From Escherichia coli (GTDB lineage Bacteria; Pseudomonadota; Gammaproteobacteria; Enterobacterales; Enterobacteriaceae): a DNA stretch of 27,104 nucleotides. Location of the stretch: the NCBI RefSeq assembly GCF_003334385.1, contig NZ_QOWN01000059.1, one strand, 5' to 3'. The position numbers and the translations under genes are program-made. The notes below the pieces were generated by a model. The model ran no database searches and was not told the DNA's origin. It worked only from the letters and a program-made list of their open reading frames with translations. Each line of letters begins with the position of its first letter. Within the stretch, counting starts at the first letter, position 1. Below are positions 16,429 to 25,693 of this stretch, piece after piece.

Positions 16429-18162
16429 TTAAAGCGAGCGGATCCCATAGGATTCAATGTGGTCAGACAGCGTGTCTTCTTTCTCGTACAGCATGGCTCT
16501 GCCAACCGCCATAATCAGCGCAACTGCACCATCGATTTTGTTTTCCGCCTGCTCTTTGACGGGCTTCACCACATCATCGTTACCCGGAATGGTTTTGCCG
16601 ACCACGTTGCCGATACACCAGGTCATGATGGGATTGCCATCATGATGAAAGCGCCCCGATTCAATTGCCGCTTCCAGCTCTTTCATCGGGTCGGACATGT
16701 TGGTGTAGTTCTGAATGATGGTGACGGGGTTCAGGTCTTCATCAGCAAGGTCATGTGAGAGCCCGGTCGCCCCGAAGGGGTCGATGGGTGACTCGCTGAC
16801 CGGGCTGATTTTGTTCGCCGCTTTGGCCTCTTCGAGGATGTAGCGATAATCCACCTCTGCACCATCGGTAACGGTCAGGACGCCCATTTCCACCCATTTC
16901 TGAAAGCGTTCGGCTGTCCGTCGATCTTCATTTTTCTCGACGCTGTACACCGTGTCATACGGTACCCAGAAACGCGGGGCCACACTGTAGTAATGCGTTT
17001 TACCGTCAATCTCGCGGGTATAAAGTCGCGCCATGCTGTTCATATCCAGCTTACGCGCCAGGTCAAAGGCCAGAATGCACGGCTGCCCCTCGAACTGCTC
17101 AAGGGTCAGTGATTTATCCTCGCAGCTCTGCCAGCTTACCAGGTTGAAATACGCCGAACGCGCCGACACCCAGATATTGAGGTGTTTTGTTTTAAAGACG
17201 TTTGCCAGACGGGCGTTATTTTTCGCACGCTGCTGCTGACTTAACAAAAATTCGCGATAAACCGACACGCCAATATTTGGATTGGCTTTTTCCAGCACCT
17301 GCGGGTCGGTCCAGTCGTCACCTTCATCAACGGTATAGATGATCCCGAACAGTTCATCGTTGGGTACCGAACCGTTGAGCATCTCGATGACTTCCCGCCG
17401 TTTGTCGTAGCACGGCCCCTCAATGTTGTACCCGGCGGTAGTGATAGCCCACATCAGTGGCTGACGTCGCGCCCCCATCCCGGTAAGCATCGTGGTGTAA
17501 AGCGCATCTGTGGCGTGCTCGTGATATTCATCCACCACCGCACAGTGGGGTGATGAACCATCACCAGGGTTACCGATCAGCGGTTCAAAACGCGCACCAT
17601 CCTCCGGACGGTTCATGTTTGAGGCGTTAACCTCAATCCCGAACGCTTCCGTCAGCATGGGTGTGCGTTTACACATCAGTCGTGCCGGACGAAAGACTTC
17701 CCACGCCTGTTTCTCCGTCGTGGCACCGGAATACACTTCCGCGCCAAACTCGTTATCACAGGCAAAACAATACAGGGCAACACCGGCAGAGATTGCCGAT
17801 TTGCCGTTCTTACGGGGGATTTCGGTATACACCTCCCGGAAGCGGCGCAATCGGGAGCCTTTATTGACCCAGCCAAACGCACAGCAGATCACAAATAGCT
17901 GCCACGGCTCCAGCGTGATGGGCATCCGTTTAAATGCCCACTCACCCTTGGTGTGCGGCAACAGCTGAATAAATTTGGCGGCCCGTTCAGCCAGGTCCTT
18001 GTCGAAGCGGTAACGAAACGACTTACTTTTTTCCGCCATCAGGTCATCAAGATGGCGCTGGCAGGCCTGAATCACAAACTGGCAGGCCACAATCTTTCCG
18101 CGCACGACATCACGGGCATACTGATTGGCAGCATTTACGTTGGGGTAAGATTTCCGGCTCAT
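16429..18162 (-). CDS. Terminase large subunit
   Basis: 577-aa ORF with ATPase and nuclease character, flanked by small terminase and portal genes. Confidence 0.9.
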
Positions 18163-18662
18163 GATTCGATGATTTTCAGAAACGGGTTAGTGGCTTTCTT
18201 CTGCCCCGCCAGGCCAATCAGACGCTGGCGGCTGCTGGGGTCGAGTCCGAGCATTGCCCCCGTGCTGCTCATCTCGGACTCCTGTTCTTTCTTGGCGGTC
18301 AGCTCCGGATTTTTGACCATGCCGCCCATTGCACCGGTGATGGTGTTGCCCTGTCTGGCAATATTTTTCACGGCACGTCGCCAGAACTCATAGGCCACGC
18401 ACCACCGCTCAAGCACTGCGAGGTCAGTCACGCACAGCAGGCCCTGACCGCAGAGTTCTTTGGTTGTCAGTTGCCACATGATCGTGGCGAGAGGAAGCTC
18501 TTCTTCAGCGAACCACTCCGGTGGCTCAACACCTTTGATGGGCGTAAAAACAGGTTCATCTTTGTTCAGGGCTCGCTTGCCGGGGTTTCCGGCCAGCGCC
18601 TTGCGCGCCGTTGGCTTAGGGCGACGCCCGGAACGCCCCGCCGTTCCAGCCATATGCGGCAC
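18159..18662 (-). CDS. Terminase small subunit (P27-family-like)
   Basis: 167-aa ORF with a basic N-terminus ([27 protein letters not shown]), overlapping the large terminase start. Confidence 0.7.
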
Positions 18663-18700
18663 TCCTGGTTAAATTTCATTTTTCGCGGGTATAAAAAAAC

Positions 18701-18756
18701 GATGGGGCGGGCAGTCCGGAAGACGTCAGGTCACAGAGATTTGACCCGCCCCTCCC
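18701..18756. other. Candidate cos/packaging recognition region
   Basis: GC-rich inverted repeat GGGGCGGG (18704-18711) and CCCGCCCC (18746-18753) in the HNH-terminase intergenic region, which is where cos lies in HK97-like phages. Confidence 0.25.
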
Positions 18757-18778
18757 CTCAGACAGTTGAGAATTATGA

Positions 18779-19129
18779 TCACTTTAGCCGTTCACGGGCC
18801 GTCTTCGCCTTATGGCACGGCCAGCACAGGCTCTGCAGATTGCTGTCGGCATCTGTGCCGCCATGCGCTTTAGGGATGATGTGGTCAACGGTTTTCGCCT
18901 CACGTACCACACCAGCACGCAGACATAACTGACACAGGCCTTTGTCACGTTGCAGCACACGCACACGGATAACATCCCACTTAGAACCATAACCGCGCTG
19001 ATGACGGGACTGACCTGGCTTGTATTGCTTCCAGCCTTCGCTTTTGTGGCTTTCGCAATAGCCTGACGAGTCAGTGGTGGTATGGCGGCAGCCGCGAACG
19101 CGGCAGGCTTTTGGGGTTCGTGGGGGCAT
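18779..19129 (-). CDS. HNH endonuclease (terminase-associated, HK97 gp74-like)
   Basis: 116-aa ORF with zinc-finger cysteines and the HNH core (CQLCLRAG...VDHIIPKAHGGTDADSNLQSLCWPCHKAK), immediately upstream of the terminase genes. Confidence 0.85.
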   Translation of the reverse strand: MPPRTPKACRVRGCRHTTTDSSGYCESHKSEGWKQYKPGQSRHQRGYGSKWDVIRVRVLQRDKGLCQLCLRAGVVREAKTVDHIIPKAHGGTDADSNLQSLCWPCHKAKTARERLK

Positions 19130-19130
19130 A

Positions 19131-19165
19131 AAAACACCAGTAAAAAGCCTCGCTAATGCGAGGCT
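19131..19165 (-). terminator. Rho-independent terminator after the membrane moron
   Basis: On the minus strand: stem AGCCUCGC, loop AUUA, stem GCGAGGCU, then UUUUUACUGGUGUUUUU. Confidence 0.5.
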
Positions 19166-19207: not shown

Positions 19208-19897
19208 TTAAATCTTTGTTCGCTGATAATCAGCAGAATCAATTAAATTATACATACCATTCATATCATGCTCATAATGATATTCAGATTCATACGAATA
19301 CCCCAATATACTCTCATAAGTCAAAACGACCCGAAAATGTTCAGGCACATCTCCAGCATTTATTTTATTTTTAGGAAATTTAATTGCGCCATTGCTACTT
19401 CTAAAAAAATGCGAGCTATATTCCCCGATAGGAGGGTCAAAAGTTAAGCTTATATTTTTCGCTGTTTTACCATCACTAAATACCGACCAATTATACTCAT
19501 ACTGTTCACCACTTTTAACTGACCATCCCAGATTCAACATATATAGATCAGGCTTCGTTTCTTTTTCTCTTTCCAGCCTTTCTGTCATGGCTTTGATTGA
19601 TTCATTTTCTAATTGCTGTTTAGAAACGGAAACCATCTCTTTATATTGTTCGACTGAGTTTTTCAACTCAGTGGCTTGTAACTTTAACGCTTCAGTATTT
19701 TGCTGTAGTTCTTTTTGTTGCTGTAAATACCCAAGCACAAGCCAAAAAAAGGCCACTGGGGAAAATGCACCAGCAAGAAAATCTCCAAACTCATTCCACG
19801 ACGTCATCTGGTTCAAATCAAGAACATGGATCGTAATACCTAAGCCAAAGAAATAAACGACACTAACTAAAACACCGCACCCAAAAATTCTCATCAT
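19208..19897 (-). CDS. Hypothetical membrane protein with coiled coil (moron)
   Basis: Visibly AT-rich ORF with two hydrophobic helices at the N-terminus, a coiled-coil stretch (QQQKELQQNTEALKLQATELKNSVEQYKEMV...) and a Tyr/Glu-rich C-terminal domain. Start placed at the ATG preceded by GGGGAGAGA; the track ORF extends to 19921. Confidence 0.55.
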   Translation of the reverse strand: MMRIFGCGVLVSVVYFFGLGITIHVLDLNQMTSWNEFGDFLAGAFSPVAFFWLVLGYLQQQKELQQNTEALKLQATELKNSVEQYKEMVSVSKQQLENESIKAMTERLEREKETKPDLYMLNLGWSVKSGEQYEYNWSVFSDGKTAKNISLTFDPPIGEYSSHFFRSSNGAIKFPKNKINAGDVPEHFRVVLTYESILGYSYESEYHYEHDMNGMYNLIDSADYQRTKI

Positions 19898-19945
19898 TCT
19901 CTCCCCATTTGGAGAAAACATTTAACAACTGTCAAATAGTCAAGG

Positions 19946-20407
19946 TCAATGCAAACACTGCAACTTTACATACTCCTGCAAGTAGTTAACCTGCGCCGTT
20001 ATCTTGTCGATTCCACTTCGGAGACGGTAATAATTGAGTTCAGCATCTGCTGTAAGTCTTGGACTTTCTCCATCGCCCATGCCGCTGGCTCTGGTCGTTG
20101 ACTTTGCACAGGTGGCAGCGACTTGCAGGCGCTTACGCCCAGCAGAAACATCAGCACGGAGACTTTCGATAGTCGCGTTAGCATCAGCAAGCTCCTTTGT
20201 GTATCTGGCGTCAAGTTCTGCTACGTCACGTTGACGCTTCTGCATATCAGAGATGGTCGCCATAGCCGAATCTAATGCCATAGCATTCTCATCACGCTGC
20301 TTTTTGTATTCAATAGCTTTATTGTGGTAATGATTCACTGAACAGATAAAAGAACCAACGACAGAAACGAAGAAAACAGCGATAACCAGCTTATAGCTCA
20401 ACTTCAT
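19946..20407 (-). CDS. rz: Rz-type i-spanin
   Basis: 153-aa ORF with an N-terminal transmembrane helix and coiled coil, closely resembling lambda Rz (NHYHNKAIEYKKQRDENA...MQKRQRDVAELDARYTKELADA); overlaps the endolysin 3' end. Confidence 0.8.
   Translation of the reverse strand: MKLSYKLVIAVFFVSVVGSFICSVNHYHNKAIEYKKQRDENAMALDSAMATISDMQKRQRDVAELDARYTKELADANATIESLRADVSAGRKRLQVAATCAKSTTRASGMGDGESPRLTADAELNYYRLRSGIDKITAQVNYLQEYVKLQCLH
19999..20184 (-). CDS. rz1: Rz1-type o-spanin lipoprotein embedded in rz in the +1 frame
   Basis: Signal peptide with lipobox (MLTRLSKVSVLMFLLGVSAC) and a Pro-rich mature part, fully inside rz. Start chosen at the second Met; the track ORF extends to 20214. Confidence 0.7.
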   Translation of the reverse strand: MLTRLSKVSVLMFLLGVSACKSLPPVQSQRPEPAAWAMEKVQDLQQMLNSIITVSEVESTR

Positions 20408-20867
20408 TTACCACCCCACCAGCCTCTTTAAACCGGGCAATCAGGTCATCGATTTTATGTTCATACTGACCGTAACCCGCACCGGGTAACGACGCCCAGA
20501 TATTGCTGCAACGATCGATAGCCTGACGGATATCACCGCGATCAATCATCGGTAAAGCACCACGCTCTTTAATCTGCTGTAATGCCACTGAGTCCTGGCT
20601 TTTGGGAGAGAAGTCTTTCAGCCCAAGCTGCTTGCGGTAAGCATCCCACCAGCGTGAAAGAAGTTGATAACGGCCTGCAGCTGTTGATTTGAGTTTCGGG
20701 TTTAGCATGACAAGTTTACGAGGGTGATCGGAGTAATCAGTGAACAGTTCGCCACCGACAATAACATCATAACCATGATTTCTCGTTTTCTGCCGTCCGT
20801 TATCCGTTCCTTCTGACCATGCCACCATATCCAGGAAAGCTTTACGCTGGGAATTTAGTACCTGCAT
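20391..20867 (-). CDS. Endolysin, lambda R-type lytic transglycosylase
   Basis: 158-aa ORF nearly collinear with recalled lambda R (NSQRKAFLDMVAWSEGTDNGRQKTRNHGYDVIVGGELFTDYSDHPRKL...). Confidence 0.9.
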   Translation of the reverse strand: MQVLNSQRKAFLDMVAWSEGTDNGRQKTRNHGYDVIVGGELFTDYSDHPRKLVMLNPKLKSTAAGRYQLLSRWWDAYRKQLGLKDFSPKSQDSVALQQIKERGALPMIDRGDIRQAIDRCSNIWASLPGAGYGQYEHKIDDLIARFKEAGGVVNEVEL

Positions 20868-20870
20868 AAA

Positions 20871-21197
20871 TTACTCCTTAGAGCCACCAAACTTGTTACC
20901 GATTACTCTCATTGCAGCCCCACGAATAGCATCGACACCGATCAGCCCCACCCCACCACCAATGGCAACAGATAGTGATTTAGGCCATCCGACATACTCA
21001 AGAGCGGATGCAAAAGTCAGCGTCAGAGCACCACAGAGCAAAATCTCGAGCGTTTTTCGCTTCCAGCCACCACCACCGCCAAAATAGGCAATGCGCAAGC
21101 CAGCCATAACGATCGACATAATTACTGCGCCCAGCGGCGTGTCTCCACGCCACCAGCTCTGGACCAACTCCAGCCAGGTATTTGGGTTATGAGGCAT
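20871..21197 (-). CDS. Holin (putative)
   Basis: 108-aa hydrophobic protein with two to three predicted transmembrane segments, immediately upstream of the endolysin with a 4-nt gap. Confidence 0.6.
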   Translation of the reverse strand: MPHNPNTWLELVQSWWRGDTPLGAVIMSIVMAGLRIAYFGGGGGWKRKTLEILLCGALTLTFASALEYVGWPKSLSVAIGGGVGLIGVDAIRGAAMRVIGNKFGGSKE

Positions 21198-21475: not shown

Positions 21476-23254
21476 GTGAGTGAAATCAGAAAGTTAAAAG
21501 GGCTAATGAATACAAATGCTATTGAGCCGTTCATTCGCCATATACGGTTTCCGTATTTTAAAAATCTTGAAGAATATAGCACTATACATTTTCACTATCC
21601 TATTACTGCATTAGTTGGTCAAAATGGAACCAATAAAAGCTCAGTATTACGTGCATTATATGGTTCTCCAAATAATTATTCCTTAGGAAATCTTTGGTTT
21701 TCAACTGATCTAGACGAGATTAAAGATGGTGGTCGTTCTAGATTTATTTATGGATACTATGATTCCGCATCTAAAGATGTTGTTGAAGTAATAAAAACAA
21801 GGATTGTAGACAAGGAGGATCCTGATTTATGGGAAACTTCGAGACCTCTAACTAAAGATGGTATGAAAAAAATACCAACAGATATTATTTCGCCAAATCA
21901 GCAAAAATCACGCTGGAAACAGATAGACAAAATTGTCACATATATTGATTTTAGAGCTTCGATCAGTGCATTCGATAAATTCTTTTATCATTCGGACTTT
22001 GATCTTTATCCAAAGAAAAATCACCTGAGAAAAAGAAGCCATCTTCTTAAAGAGATAATAGATAAAGGCCTAACATCATACAAGCCCTTTAAAGGTAAAA
22101 AAGAAAGGTTGTATAAGAATGAATTACTTTCTCAAGAGAAGGTAGAAATCATCAGCGATATACTTGGTAGACCTTACAAAACAATTAGACTTATTGAGCA
22201 TGCCTTATTTACAAACAATAAGGCTTCAACCGTTATTTTAGAGTCTCATAGTCTCAACTACTCCGAGGCTTTTGCAGGAAGTGGGGAGTTTGCAGTAACT
22301 ATTCTCGTAAATCAAATTGTTAACGCGCCAACAGCATCATTAATTCTTTTAGATGAACCCGAAGTCTCACTTCATCCAGCAGCACAGTTTAAATTGATGT
22401 CTTTTCTAAATAAGATTTGCTTAAAAAACAAACATCAAATTGTTATTTCAACACACTCATCATCTATAGTTAGCCAACTACCTAAGGAAGCCATAAAACT
22501 TTTTAATCTTAATTCAAACTCAGGAAAAGTTAGTATAGTTGAAAACGTTAGCCCTGAGGAAGCTTTCTTTACGCTTGGAGACCGACTATCAAAAAAAACT
22601 ATCTTTGTAGAAGATAAACTGGCTAAAAAATTCGTTGAGAAGGCTTTAAAATCAGGAGGTCCTGCCCTAGCCAATACATTTGATGTTATATATTGCCCAG
22701 CTGGTGCAAGCACATTATTAGGTAATATGATTGTCTCATTATTTTTATCAAGAGTTGATAATGCGGTATTTTTATTGGATGGTGATCAGAAGACAAGCCA
22801 TGATTTCATTACATCAGCCTTAATACCAAGCAGTGAAGATAATTCTTTAAATGAAAAAATAAAAAATATTCTTGGGTGTGAAATTAAAATACCAACTGAT
22901 GGGCATGGTGGAACTCCAAATAAACAGCAGAAGATTCAACTTCAGCGTGATTTCATTGATTTTTCATATAATTATGTAGGGTATTTACCTATCATTAATC
23001 CAGAAACTTTTTTGATTGACAATCTTCCGGCTTTTTACTCCGATATGATTAAAGATTTAAACTTATCAAAACTATCACCAAAATCAATAATTGCAGAAAT
23101 ATGTAAAAGAGACATAGAAAATAACGTTATAACTTCGGATGATATTTTCGCAACACAAATCAGGATACTAACCCGAATACCTGAGAATCATGTCGCATTT
23201 TCTGAAACGAGAGAAATGCTGAAATTTTTCCTTGAACATGGTAAGATAAGATAA
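21476..23254 (+). CDS. ABC-type ATPase with C-terminal TOPRIM-like nuclease domain (OLD/PARIS/Gabija-like architecture)
   Basis: 592-aa ORF. Walker A GQNGTNKSS (residues 48-56), Walker B LILLDEPE (289-296), H-loop ISTHS (324-328), then TOPRIM-like FVED (E379) and LLDGDQ (D435, D437). Visibly AT-rich. Start may be the GTG at 21476 or the ATG at 21506. Confidence 0.7.
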   Translation: MSEIRKLKGLMNTNAIEPFIRHIRFPYFKNLEEYSTIHFHYPITALVGQNGTNKSSVLRALYGSPNNYSLGNLWFSTDLDEIKDGGRSRFIYGYYDSASKDVVEVIKTRIVDKEDPDLWETSRPLTKDGMKKIPTDIISPNQQKSRWKQIDKIVTYIDFRASISAFDKFFYHSDFDLYPKKNHLRKRSHLLKEIIDKGLTSYKPFKGKKERLYKNELLSQEKVEIISDILGRPYKTIRLIEHALFTNNKASTVILESHSLNYSEAFAGSGEFAVTILVNQIVNAPTASLILLDEPEVSLHPAAQFKLMSFLNKICLKNKHQIVISTHSSSIVSQLPKEAIKLFNLNSNSGKVSIVENVSPEEAFFTLGDRLSKKTIFVEDKLAKKFVEKALKSGGPALANTFDVIYCPAGASTLLGNMIVSLFLSRVDNAVFLLDGDQKTSHDFITSALIPSSEDNSLNEKIKNILGCEIKIPTDGHGGTPNKQQKIQLQRDFIDFSYNYVGYLPIINPETFLIDNLPAFYSDMIKDLNLSKLSPKSIIAEICKRDIENNVITSDDIFATQIRILTRIPENHVAFSETREMLKFFLEHGKIR

Positions 23255-23280
23255 ATTTTAGATTATTATAGAGACAGATC

Positions 23281-24315
23281 ATGAAGAAAAAAATCAAAGT
23301 TTTTGACTTCTTTTCAGGATGCGGGGGAACAAGCAAAGGCCTTAAAGAGGCTGGGTGCGAAATTTTCTTCGGTCTCGATTATGATTATGACTCTGGTCAA
23401 ACCTTTCAGGCAAATAATCCTGATGCTATATTTTTTAATGAGGATATACGCTCCGTTAAGTTAAATGATTTATTTCAGCTTGTAAAAAAAGCGAAGCAAG
23501 ACTCACATGTTTTGTTTTGTGGTTGTGCTCCATGTCAACCGTTCTCAAGGCAAAATAAAAATAAAAGCAAAGAAGATCCTCGAAGAGGATTATTAAACGA
23601 ATTTGGTCGTTTTATCGAGTACTATTGTCCTGATTATGTACTGATAGAAAATGTTCCAGGATTACAAAAAGTTGATATTAACGATGGACCATTGCATGAT
23701 TTTATAACTCTTCTGAAAAAGAAAGATTATAATTTAGCTTATGGTGTGATTCCCGCTTTATGGTACGGAGTGCCTCAAACCAGAGAGCGTTTTGTTCTTA
23801 TGGCCTCACTTCATTCCCCAATCCATCTACCAGAGCGCACGCATAATGGCGAAGATATCCCATTTGCGACGGTAAGAGATTGGATCGGAAATATACCACC
23901 AATTGAGGCAGGTGAATCACATCCTACATTACGAGATCATGTTAGTGCAAAACTCTCTGCTTTAAATCTTAAAAGAATTAAAGCAACGCCAGAGGGTAAA
24001 GGTCGAGAGTTTTGGCCTAAAGAGTTGTTACTTGAATGTCATAAAAACCATACAGGTCACAGCGATGTATATGGCCGATTAGCATGGGATAAACCTGCTA
24101 GTGGATTAACTACAAGATGCATTAGTTACTCTAACGGAAGATTTGGCCATCCTGAGCAACACCGGGCAATTTCTGTTCGCGAGGCTGCACTGCTACAAAC
24201 ATTTCCATTGGATTATATATTCATCGGTTCAATGCTTTCTAAAGCTAAACAAATTGGTAATGCAGTCCCACCTAAAATGGCGGAGTCTATAGGGCATGTT
24301 TTTATGAATATTTAG
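23281..24315 (+). CDS. DNA cytosine-5 methyltransferase
   Basis: 344-aa ORF with C5-methyltransferase motifs in order: FDFFSGCGG (motif I), GCAPCQPFS (catalytic Cys85), LIENVPG, QTRERF and QIGNAVPP. Starts 26 nt after the ATPase gene. Confidence 0.9.
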   Translation: MKKKIKVFDFFSGCGGTSKGLKEAGCEIFFGLDYDYDSGQTFQANNPDAIFFNEDIRSVKLNDLFQLVKKAKQDSHVLFCGCAPCQPFSRQNKNKSKEDPRRGLLNEFGRFIEYYCPDYVLIENVPGLQKVDINDGPLHDFITLLKKKDYNLAYGVIPALWYGVPQTRERFVLMASLHSPIHLPERTHNGEDIPFATVRDWIGNIPPIEAGESHPTLRDHVSAKLSALNLKRIKATPEGKGREFWPKELLLECHKNHTGHSDVYGRLAWDKPASGLTTRCISYSNGRFGHPEQHRAISVREAALLQTFPLDYIFIGSMLSKAKQIGNAVPPKMAESIGHVFMNI

Positions 24316-24338: not shown

Positions 24339-24695
24339 CTATAACATTGACATTACTCCCTCAACAAATCCCAAGGCGGATTGCAAATCCTTCCGGATAG
24401 TCCCGTCCGAACATTTCCGCTTCTTTGCAATTGTGCGGAGTGAAATACCTATAACAAAGTGAACAATGAGCAGCTCAAACTCATCTGGCTTATACTTTCG
24501 TAACCGAGCCACACAACTGTCTACCATAATACCTTCGTCATCATCACACTGAATCCGGGACTTTTTGCCATGAGGTAAAAGCCCCTTAAAGCCAGCGGCT
24601 ACCTGTTGCCAATCCACACCACTGTTTTCTGCCGCAGCCCATGCCCCCCAGCGGTCCAAAACTTCATACATATCACGCATCAACTTTCTCCACAA
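24339..24695 (-). CDS. Late gene antiterminator Q (QuuD/phage 82 type)
   Basis: 118-aa ORF resembling recalled E. coli QuuD (VLDRWGAWAA...AAGFKGLL...SRIQCDDDEGIMVDSCVARL...CSDGTIRKDL). Confidence 0.7.
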   Translation of the reverse strand: MWRKLMRDMYEVLDRWGAWAAAENSGVDWQQVAAGFKGLLPHGKKSRIQCDDDEGIMVDSCVARLRKYKPDEFELLIVHFVIGISLRTIAKKRKCSDGTIRKDLQSALGFVEGVMSML

Positions 24696-24697
24696 AA

Positions 24698-25693
24698 TCA
24701 GGCCAGCACGCCTATTGCCAGCGCACGATCGATAAAACGAAATATCAGCTCCAACTGGGAGCCATACTTCTCTTCAAATGCCACGGTATCCGCATGTAGT
24801 TCGTCGTGATGCTTTCTGCACAAAGGCAACACAAAGAGGTCATGCGCTTTTGTACCCATTCCCCCCTGACCGTGGCCTATCAGGTGGTGGGGATCATCAG
24901 CAGGCTTTCCACAACATGCACACGGCTGTGTCTTAACCCAGCGCGTGTACTTTTCATTAACCCAGCGGCGACGTTTTGGGCGTAACATAAAAGACTCCGG
25001 CGACTCCGGATCCACTTTCAGCGCCAGCACCTTTTTCGCCTTATCCTGGATGATGCTGGTGGCAGGAACCGAAGGCACAAGGTCACTTTCCCGGGTGACA
25101 GACGGCACAACAGGCTTCGGTAATCTCAGTGCCTTACGGGCTGCACTTTCCGGTAAGGCATCCGCCAGGTCATTACGAATCAGCCACCAGCACAGTTCCG
25201 GCATTGTCACAACGTGACTGTCATCAAAACCGAGATCCCGACGCACAACAGACAACACCCAGCGGGCACAGTTATCCGTTGCCATTGATTCCAGCCGTTC
25301 CGTGAACTGATCGCGCAGCTGGTTATCGCAGTGCCAGCACAGACGGATTGCGCCCGGAGCGTGTCGCATTGTGGTCATGTTCTCGCTGTGCCAGTCGGAA
25401 TGAGGCCACTGGCAGCCTTTTTCACGAAGTAACCAGCTTTCAAGACATTCCACGCCACCAGCACGACGGATCACTGCCTCATTGCGGAACACGCCCCGAA
25501 CGGCAGGATCATCCGCCAGCGGTTGTGATGCCGCGGGAACGGCACCACTGGCGAAAGATGAATAACGCTCCGGCTCAGGCTCCAGCAGGACACGCCCCTG
25601 CATAAACAGGGGCATCAGCTCTGAACCTGGCCTGAACAATACGATCCCCATACGCGGGGCAATTTCAGGGGTCAGTAGTGCTCTCACGGTCAC
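24698..25693 (-). CDS. DUF968 (YdfU-like) prophage protein
   Basis: 331-aa ORF with a C-terminal Cys/His cluster (CACCGKPADDPHHLIGHGQGGMGTKAHDLFVLPLCRKHHDELH) typical of the YdfU family; directly upstream of Q. Confidence 0.6.
   Translation of the reverse strand: MTVRALLTPEIAPRMGIVLFRPGSELMPLFMQGRVLLEPEPERYSSFASGAVPAASQPLADDPAVRGVFRNEAVIRRAGGVECLESWLLREKGCQWPHSDWHSENMTTMRHAPGAIRLCWHCDNQLRDQFTERLESMATDNCARWVLSVVRRDLGFDDSHVVTMPELCWWLIRNDLADALPESAARKALRLPKPVVPSVTRESDLVPSVPATSIIQDKAKKVLALKVDPESPESFMLRPKRRRWVNEKYTRWVKTQPCACCGKPADDPHHLIGHGQGGMGTKAHDLFVLPLCRKHHDELHADTVAFEEKYGSQLELIFRFIDRALAIGVLA

Follow-up and report, generated by a model that had tools for sequence, protein, structure and literature searches.

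The gap between the HNH endonuclease gene and the small terminase gene terS in the window, by which we mean the whole 27,104-nt stretch of E. coli DNA analyzed here, is, judged from its sequence and with a probability of about 90%, the cos site and packaging module of a temperate, SfV-like myovirus that is integrated in E. coli and has an HK97-type head and terminase. The initial annotation had placed cos between these two genes, and this position holds: the gap matches the joined ends of phage SfV at 100% identity and contains the mapped end of phage SfI. In a megablast comparison, the linear records of SfV, SfIV, SfI and SfII all break within this gap. For example, the two ends of the SfV record (NC_003444), ...GGGGCGGGTCAAATCTCTGTGACCTGACGTCT and TCCGGACTGCCCGCCCCATCG..., when joined give exactly the minus-strand sequence of the window, and the identity to these joined ends is 100% from position 18760 down to 18654. 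For SfI, run-off sequencing of virion DNA showed that 10 nt present in the prophage, 5'-TGCCCGCCCC-3', were missing (PMC3636060), and the SfI record ends with these same 10 nt. Restriction analysis of SfI DNA (data not shown in that report) pointed to a linear genome, and the authors concluded that the phage uses a cos site and not headful packaging (PMC3636060). SfIV and SfII have been reported to have the same cos as SfI. From the identity to SfI and SfV and the register shared with HK97 and phiE125, the cohesive end, which is the equivalent of cosN, is assigned to TGCCCGCCCC at 18704..18713 on the minus strand. The left arm of an inverted repeat listed in the initial annotation (18704-18711), extended by two bases, is the mapped SfI end.

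Within the window, TGCCCGCCCC is predicted to form a 10-nt 3' overhang. The SfI paper does not state the polarity of the ends; we infer it for the SfV group from the run-off reads, both of which showed a gap and not an overlap, as recessed 5' ends and hence 10-nt 3' overhangs would produce. The positions of the nicks can be predicted by comparison with HK97 and with the Burkholderia phages phiE125 and phi644-2. The cos of HK97 has 10-nt 3' overhangs (PMC9410871), and the HK97 record ends with ...AAATGAC CGCCGCCAAA and starts with GTTTG.... The right 3' extension of phiE125 and phi644-2 has been published as the 10-base 5'-CGCCCGCTTC-3' (PMC2920897), and the phiE125 record ends with ...CGGGAC CGCCCGCTTC. 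When 15 phages were aligned on the trinucleotide GAC, the mapped ends of HK97, SfI and phiE125 all started in the same column as TGCCCGCCCC of the window; each of the three is 10 nt long, and the 3' polarity is stated for HK97 and phiE125. The record of Proteus phage Pm34 terminates exactly after GAC. Since the SfI, HK97 and phiE125 ends share this register after GAC, nicks are predicted at 18714|18713 in the bottom strand and at 18704|18703 in the top strand. In the GenBank record of SfV, the linear junction is at 18721|18720, which is 7 nt upstream of the bottom-strand nick deduced from SfI.

Upstream of the gap lies the gene for a 116-aa HNH endonuclease (18779..19129, minus strand), and its description in the initial annotation as a terminase-associated protein is well founded. 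The ORF matches PF01844 at residues 66-112 (E=4e-16) and the HNH family phrog_144 (E=8e-45), aligns over its full length with the structure of the GVE2 HNH protein (5h0m, E=3e-12), and shares 38% identity with HK97 gp74 over 69 aa (BLASTP, E=2e-11). It is 97% identical to SfV orf53 and relatives, and a search of IMG/VR with the protein returned relatives of 95-97% identity only. The HNH residues C66xxC69, D82-H83, N97 and C102xxC-H106 can be recognized, with both CxxC pairs present, and the N-terminus carries a CX4CX10CX2H motif. The gene is directly upstream of terS and terL, with all three on the minus strand, so that the claimed adjacency to the terminase genes is also correct. The small terminase gene (18159..18653, minus strand) encodes a 164-aa protein of the P27 family, which scores 76.3 bits against TIGR01558, compared with a curated cut-off of 45.6, and matches phrog_83. 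The large terminase gene (16429..18162, minus strand) encodes a 577-aa protein of the HK97 type, with PF03354 and PF20441 both present and with matches to the HK97 TerL structure (6z6d, E=4e-25) and phrog_9. The portal (TIGR01537), protease (TIGR01543) and capsid (TIGR01554) proteins are all of the HK97 type and score above their cut-offs. With cos placed as predicted, HNH would be the last gene and terS the first gene of the virion chromosome. A strong terminator is found at 19146-19165, just upstream of HNH, and the expression of HNH and the terminase genes therefore depends on antiterminated read-through.

The length of the gap depends on the start codon assigned to terS. The 116 nt of the initial annotation are correct for the listed GTG start at 18662, but the gap measures 125 nt (18654-18778) with the ATG at 18653, which is the start in both the SfV record and the PGAP annotation and has the sequence AGGAG 8 nt upstream. 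Reading along the minus strand, a spacer that varies among 59 relatives (18759..18778) follows the HNH stop codon. Alignment then defines a G-rich box, GAGGGGAGGGGCGGG (18745..18759), which includes the right arm of the inverted repeat (18745-18752, CCCGCCCC on the plus strand). The box is followed by the motif TCAAATC (18738..18744), recognized by its spacing of 28 nt, first base to first base, ahead of GAC, and by a 21-nt spacer (18717..18737) that the alignment shows to be fixed in length and variable in sequence. The conserved GAC (18714..18716) directly precedes the mapped ends of HK97, SfI and phiE125. Downstream of the cohesive end, a cosB-like leader (18654..18703) is, from its conservation and its likeness to HK97, the probable TerS recognition region; it contains a run of seven T (18693-18699), ACCCGCGAAAAA (18679-18690), then AAATTT, and the AGGAG ribosome-binding site (18662-18666). 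In the layout seen across the aligned phages, this region corresponds to a T run and an ACCCGCG-A-tract block.

Several of these elements recur at the same positions in other phages. In 14 of the 15 aligned phages the G-rich block lies in the same columns, with that of D3 offset by 3 nt, and GAC is replaced by TAC or CAC in two phages. The distance from TCAAATC to GAC is exactly 28 nt in the window, in HK97 and in five further loci that were retrieved through HNH protein similarity and not through a DNA pattern; the same spacing is found in phiE125 and Moraxella Mcat28. Between sub-lineages, the 21-nt spacer is unrelated in sequence and constant in length. Blocks resembling the leader are also present in phiE125, Mcat28 and PhiPS02. 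In the Klebsiella phages KLB28 and NAR688 and the Vibrio phage H20, this layout is absent directly after HNH. A full-text literature search for GGTCAAATC returned primer matches only. An IHF site at TCAAATC was considered and rejected, as the consensus WATCAANNNNTTR does not fit by eye. GGGGAGGG occurs in the G box as a natural variant of GGGGCGGG.

Conservation among close relatives was assessed in a set of 59 distinct sequences found by protein similarity. The gap sequences of related loci (n=80) were collected from match coordinates, and wider diversity was drawn from a tblastn search against a phage collection and from a DNA pattern scan. Among the 59 relatives, both spacers vary freely: 80% of the columns vary in the post-stop spacer 18759-18778 (mean minor-allele frequency 0.152) and 71% in the spacer columns 18717-18733 (0.076). 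Less variation is seen in the cohesive end and the leader than in the coding sequence on either side. Only 15% of the columns vary in GAC plus the cohesive end (2 of 13; mean minor-allele frequency 0.003) and 12% in the 50-nt leader (0.005), compared with 25% in the HNH 3' coding sequence (0.034) and 21% in the terS 5' coding sequence (0.012). The G-rich box also shows low diversity among close relatives.

Scanning IMG/VR with the pattern GNTCAAATC-N21-GACYGCCSSC gave at least 122 matches. Positions specified by the pattern would be circular as evidence for conservation and were excluded; the 14 G-rich nucleotides lie outside the pattern except for one G, and the T run after the cut is likewise outside it. 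In the 14 nt before TCAAATC, G makes up a mean fraction of 0.77 across 87 distinct IMG/VR sequences among the matches listed, and the T run is conserved among the IMG/VR matches listed. An HNH homologue is encoded in the 600 nt upstream of 115 of the 122 pattern matches listed, and about three of the matches look like chance. On the downstream side, at least four unrelated leader-plus-terS types occur among the matches listed, with the P27 type of the window in 60, a second type in 35, the HK97 type in 10 and a fourth in one. A change of terS type brings a change of leader block but leaves the upstream half of cos as it is. With at least four terS types behind one upstream half, it can be deduced that the upstream half of cos goes together with HNH and TerL, and the downstream half with terS. 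Such swapping of the downstream half together with terS would be expected if the downstream block is read by TerS.

A G box and a TCAAATC-like motif at fixed spacing were found in HNH-carrying 3'-cos phages of E. coli/Shigella, Klebsiella, Proteus, Vibrio, Moraxella, Burkholderia and Acidovorax. The fixed position of this upstream box across phages of Gamma- and Betaproteobacteria is a mildly new point and suggests a cosQ-like element. The HK97 literature examined defines the downstream TerS site only, and we did not find a description there of a rigidly placed upstream G box with TCAAATC. A tentative reading, which we regard as possible, is that the G box and TCAAATC form a cosQ-like element in a cos that is modular in the manner described above. 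If this is true, the G box could be a brake or a docking site that is sensed by TerL, HNH or the portal near the cut. The comparison, with its rigidly spaced upstream box in distant phages and a downstream half that changes along with terS, is of some value to work on the termination of HK97-type packaging.

A packaging scheme can be proposed from these elements. After induction, the P27-family TerS would recognize concatemeric phage DNA at the T-tract/ACCCGCGAAAAA leader (18654-18703), just downstream of the cut, probably by reading the seven T and ACCCGCGAAAAA at +5..+25. The HK97-type TerL, with the help of the adjacent HNH protein, which may be required, would nick at 18714|18713 and 18704|18703, 10 nt apart, and so leave 10-nt 3' overhangs of TGCCCGCCCC and its complement. 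Packaging would then proceed from the terS side through the structural genes, toward decreasing window coordinates, and terminate at the next cos, where the motor would arrive from the HNH side and meet the G box and TCAAATC first. HK97 provides the model for much of this scheme. Its TerS binds a 15-bp site, ACCCGATTTTTTT, at +15..+29 (PMC11331095). This site contains ACCCG and an A/T tract, and the bound TerS is a roadblock that switches TerL to its nuclease mode; in addition, HK97 gp74 stimulates the cleavage of cos by TerL in vitro and may cut one strand (PMC11331095, PMC9410871, PMC10359639). The leader in the window resembles the HK97 TerS site by position and composition only. As the TerS of the window has no sequence similarity to HK97 gp1 detectable by BLASTP (E=7), the TerS-DNA contacts of HK97 are not transferable, and the analogy that remains is positional.

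The initial annotation had taken a GC-rich inverted repeat as the marker of cos. The two octamers, GGGGCGGG at 18704-18711 and CCCGCCCC at 18745-18752, are indeed inverted copies of each other, with no third copy on either strand of the whole 27-kb window. Their spacing is 33 nt, however, and not the 34 bp given earlier, and the repeat begins at 18704 as described but stops at 18752, not at 18753. The repeat is real and non-random: the spaced pattern GGGGCGGG-N10-40-CCCGCCCC occurs once in the window and in none of 100 dinucleotide shuffles. The arms are perfect over 8 nt, they are kept in 22 of the 87 distinct relatives listed, each of which has the SfV-type end, and the SfV record junction at 18721|18720 falls between them, all of which could be taken to mean that the repeat itself is the cos signal, acting as a cruciform or hairpin or as the site of a symmetric dimer, with the cut between the arms. 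We regard this as very unlikely. Among the pattern matches listed, a complement of 8 nt between the cohesive end and the G box is found only in the SfV type; its maximum length is 3-4 nt in HK97, a phage with a cos that is functional in vitro, and 3-7 nt in other sub-lineages. Even where TGCCCGCCCC is kept but the box reads GGGGAGGGGGAGG, the longest complement is only 4-5 nt. Moreover, the mapped SfI end coincides with one arm and does not lie between the arms, and folding of the gap strand is no better than that of shuffles, either as single-stranded DNA (z = -1.2) or as RNA (z = -0.6). The minus-strand transcript would read GGGGCGGG...CCCGCCCC, followed after 4 nt by UUUUUUU, and a G/C stem with a U run could in principle be an intrinsic terminator or attenuator between HNH and the terminase genes. 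The loop of such a terminator would be 33 nt, though, with the U run offset from the stem; a scan for rho-independent terminators found no terminator-like site in 18654-18778, and the RNA fold energy just given argues against it as well. Relatives without the stem also have the T run, with its distance from the cut conserved, and the corresponding T tract of HK97 belongs to the TerS binding site, so that a terminator here seems extremely improbable. The inverted repeat is instead the overlap of two separate elements, and neither a hairpin nor a symmetric binding site: the left arm belongs to the cohesive end proper, the right arm falls within the separate conserved G-rich box, and the complementarity is a by-product of two functional elements that are both G/C-biased. 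The part of the original claim that identified the gap as cos is thus upheld by the identity to SfI and SfV, but the repeat as a functional unit is not, the pairing being lost in relatives with working cos sites such as HK97.

Two further explanations concern the HNH gene and the state of the prophage. HNH genes are often mobile, and this one could be a free-standing homing endonuclease that lies beside the terminase genes by chance, with packaging independent of it. The records ON470603 and ON470612 annotate it as a homing endonuclease. This explanation has little to recommend it when the HNH-cos-terS order is found in 115 of the 122 matches listed, with at least four terS types, and is kept across phages of Gamma- and Betaproteobacteria, and when many linear phage records have an HNH homologue at their extreme right end. 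The protein also matches the terminase-associated gp74 and GVE2 HNH proteins, and close relatives differ little in its 3' coding sequence, with a minor-allele frequency of 0.034. Alternatively, the prophage could be defective, with its cos surviving as an unused relic. One related element, e14 of K-12, is a defective prophage, and PGAP gives the name YmfR to the small ORF between TerL and the portal; in addition, the window shows only part of the prophage, and in the closest E. coli genome a pseudogenised KilA-N gene is found nearby. Against this, the ORFs for HNH, TerS, TerL, portal, protease and capsid each have their full length, the structural region shares 97% identity with that of the plaque-forming phages SfI, SfII, SfIV and SfV, and the cos DNA is identical. 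A relic is therefore an unlikely, but not a negligible, explanation, and the reading of the gap as an SfV-type cos is preferred.

An SfV-type cos at 18704-18713 fixes the map of the phage. The virion chromosome would start at the terS side, from 18703 downward, and end at 18704, past HNH. The genes from Q to HNH would thereby be placed in the last ~6 kb to be packaged, which agrees with the earlier proposal that the morons and a defence cassette sit at the right end of the packaged chromosome. This predicted right end comprises the Q gene (24339-24695), a low-GC cassette on the plus strand encoding a 592-aa ATPase and a 344-aa cytosine methyltransferase (21476-24315), the holin, endolysin and Rz genes (19946-21197), a low-GC ORF of 237 aa (a moron) with its own terminator (19208-19921), the HNH gene, and finally the segment running from 18759 to 18704, which holds the G box and the cohesive end. 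The exact coordinates can be used for the construction of cos plasmids or, after induction, for checks by end sequencing. The feature is otherwise an ordinary one. The HNH-cos-terS module is found in 1165 of 5426 complete E. coli genomes, or about a fifth, and is routinely annotated, and publications have already described both the cos of these phages and the association of HNH with the terminase.

The SfV group is the nearest known system. Over the ~16.5 kb aligned, the packaging, head and tail module has 97% nucleotide identity to SfI, SfII, SfIV and SfV, and its closest relatives are the E. coli phages vB_EcoM-689R6 and vB_EcoM-720R4. From the G box to the terS start, the window has the same cos DNA as SfV, SfI, SfII and SfIV, the HNH protein is 97% identical, and the gene order lysis-HNH-cos-terS-terL is shared. 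The differences lie in the host, which is Shigella flexneri for the SfV group and E. coli here, and in the accessory genes. Rz and HNH are 27 nt apart in SfV, whereas in the window the 237-aa low-GC ORF lies between them, and the low-GC ATPase and methyltransferase cassette between Q and the holin gene is a further departure from the group.

HK97 shares with the window the position of HNH as the last gene and of terS as the first gene of the virion genome, the homologous TerL, portal, protease and capsid, and the succession of a G-rich box, TCAAATC, 21 nt, GAC and a 10-nt C-rich end, with a T-tract site downstream. It differs in its TerS, which is unrelated in sequence, and in its downstream recognition block; in addition, gp74 lacks the N-terminal Cys/His motif, the HK97 cos has no inverted repeat, and HK97 is a siphovirus, in contrast to the contractile tails of SfV-like phages. 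The Burkholderia phages phiE125 and phi644-2, which are also siphoviruses, infect a betaproteobacterial host, and their HNH identity to the window is ~51%. Nevertheless, HNH is again the last gene, the G-rich box, an AAA motif, the spacing, GAC and the 10-nt end are in register, and the leader is similar (TTTTCACGCCCGCGAAATT against TTTTTATACCCGCGAAAAAT).

A further comparison is with the cos of lambda. Lambda has 12-nt 5' overhangs, a gpNu1/gpA terminase, an IHF-assisted cosB and no HNH protein. In the window, TerS is of the P27 family and TerL of the HK97 type, not of the Nu1/gpA type, and none of the lambda sequences is present. The likeness to cosQ-cosN-cosB is one of arrangement: an upstream element that is met first, a nicking site, and a downstream site for the small terminase next to the terminase genes. 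The HNH protein of GVE2 (5h0m) comes from a phage of a thermophilic Gram-positive host (Geobacillus) and its identity to that of the window is low, but the two proteins align over their full length, including both the N-terminal CX4C...CX2H motif and the HNH core.

The GenBank record of Shigella phage SfV (NC_003444) begins at TCCGGACTGCCC..., which corresponds to the window junction 18720/18721. The SfI run-off data, together with the HK97/phiE125 register, place the inferred end 7 nt further downstream. The authors of the SfII sequence annotated bp 59-125 as "cos", and this is the same stretch that runs from the SfV record start to terS (window 18720..18654). Either the SfV end was mapped at lower resolution or the record was linearised by convention. 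Within the leader, the minus-strand block GTTTTTTTATACCCGCGAA (18682-18700) has a 74% direct-repeat copy, GTTTTTATGCCCCCACGAA, at 19117-19135, spanning the HNH start codon; this resemblance is possibly due to chance.

Related loci show other layouts of the module. In at least two IMG/VR prophages, L119 (2690316149_000015) and L131 (2711768073_000020), two direct copies of the bipartite cos pattern are found ~3 kb apart, and two same-sense cos sites this close should interfere with packaging. For example, L119 (92-5902) has an HNH-cos-terS set followed by a 2-kb insert, after which come another HNH-like ORF, the second cos, terS and finally terL. The insert carries 288-aa and 102-aa ORFs on the minus strand, sizes that as a pair are typical of an IS3-family element and make the insert a candidate for one. 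A further arrangement was seen in Vibrio phage H20 (L091), where an HNH homologue with 53% identity ends only 6 nt before the terS start (1060-1067). This leaves no space for a cos site between the two genes, and thus the HNH-cos-terS order is not universal in the family.

Two low-GC segments lie in the vicinity of the lysis genes. In SfV, Rz and HNH are separated by 27 nt, whereas in the window they flank an inserted 237-aa ORF (19208-19921, minus strand), 37% in GC content and hydrophobic at its N-terminus. It matches phrog_9267, a family of unknown function, had no match in a PADLOC search, and is present in only 12 of the 1165 E. coli genomes with the HNH-cos-terS module. The ORF is followed by a clean minus-strand terminator (8-bp stem plus T run; 19165-19146), and 10 nt separate this terminator from the start of HNH. 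The other segment is a two-gene cassette of 31-35% GC between the Q and holin genes (21476-24315), encoded on the plus strand, opposite to the late genes. Its products are a 592-aa ATPase, with PtuA/GajA-like ATPase regions and best PADLOC matches to HEC-04 and ATPase-Toprim_I-B, together with a cytosine methyltransferase of 344 aa (MTase_II, E=7e-86). Since this position is taken by two other genes, both hypothetical, in the closest E. coli genome, the Q-holin interval looks like a cargo hotspot.

Upstream of Q, a 331-aa ORF (24698-25693, minus strand) has a C-terminal Cys/His-rich HNH-like motif (CACCGKP...HHLIGHG...CRKHHDELH); for the equivalent gene of the closest E. coli genome, the PGAP name is DUF968 domain protein. 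The 331-aa product would be the second HNH-like protein of the window, by position unrelated to packaging. The HNH protein next to cos (18779-19129) carries at residues 9-28 an N-terminal C9-X4-C14-X10-C25-X2-H28 motif, which is probably an extra zinc site. The solved HNH protein of GVE2 aligns with it across this Cys/His motif, whereas HK97 gp74 is without the motif and its alignment begins only at residue 41.
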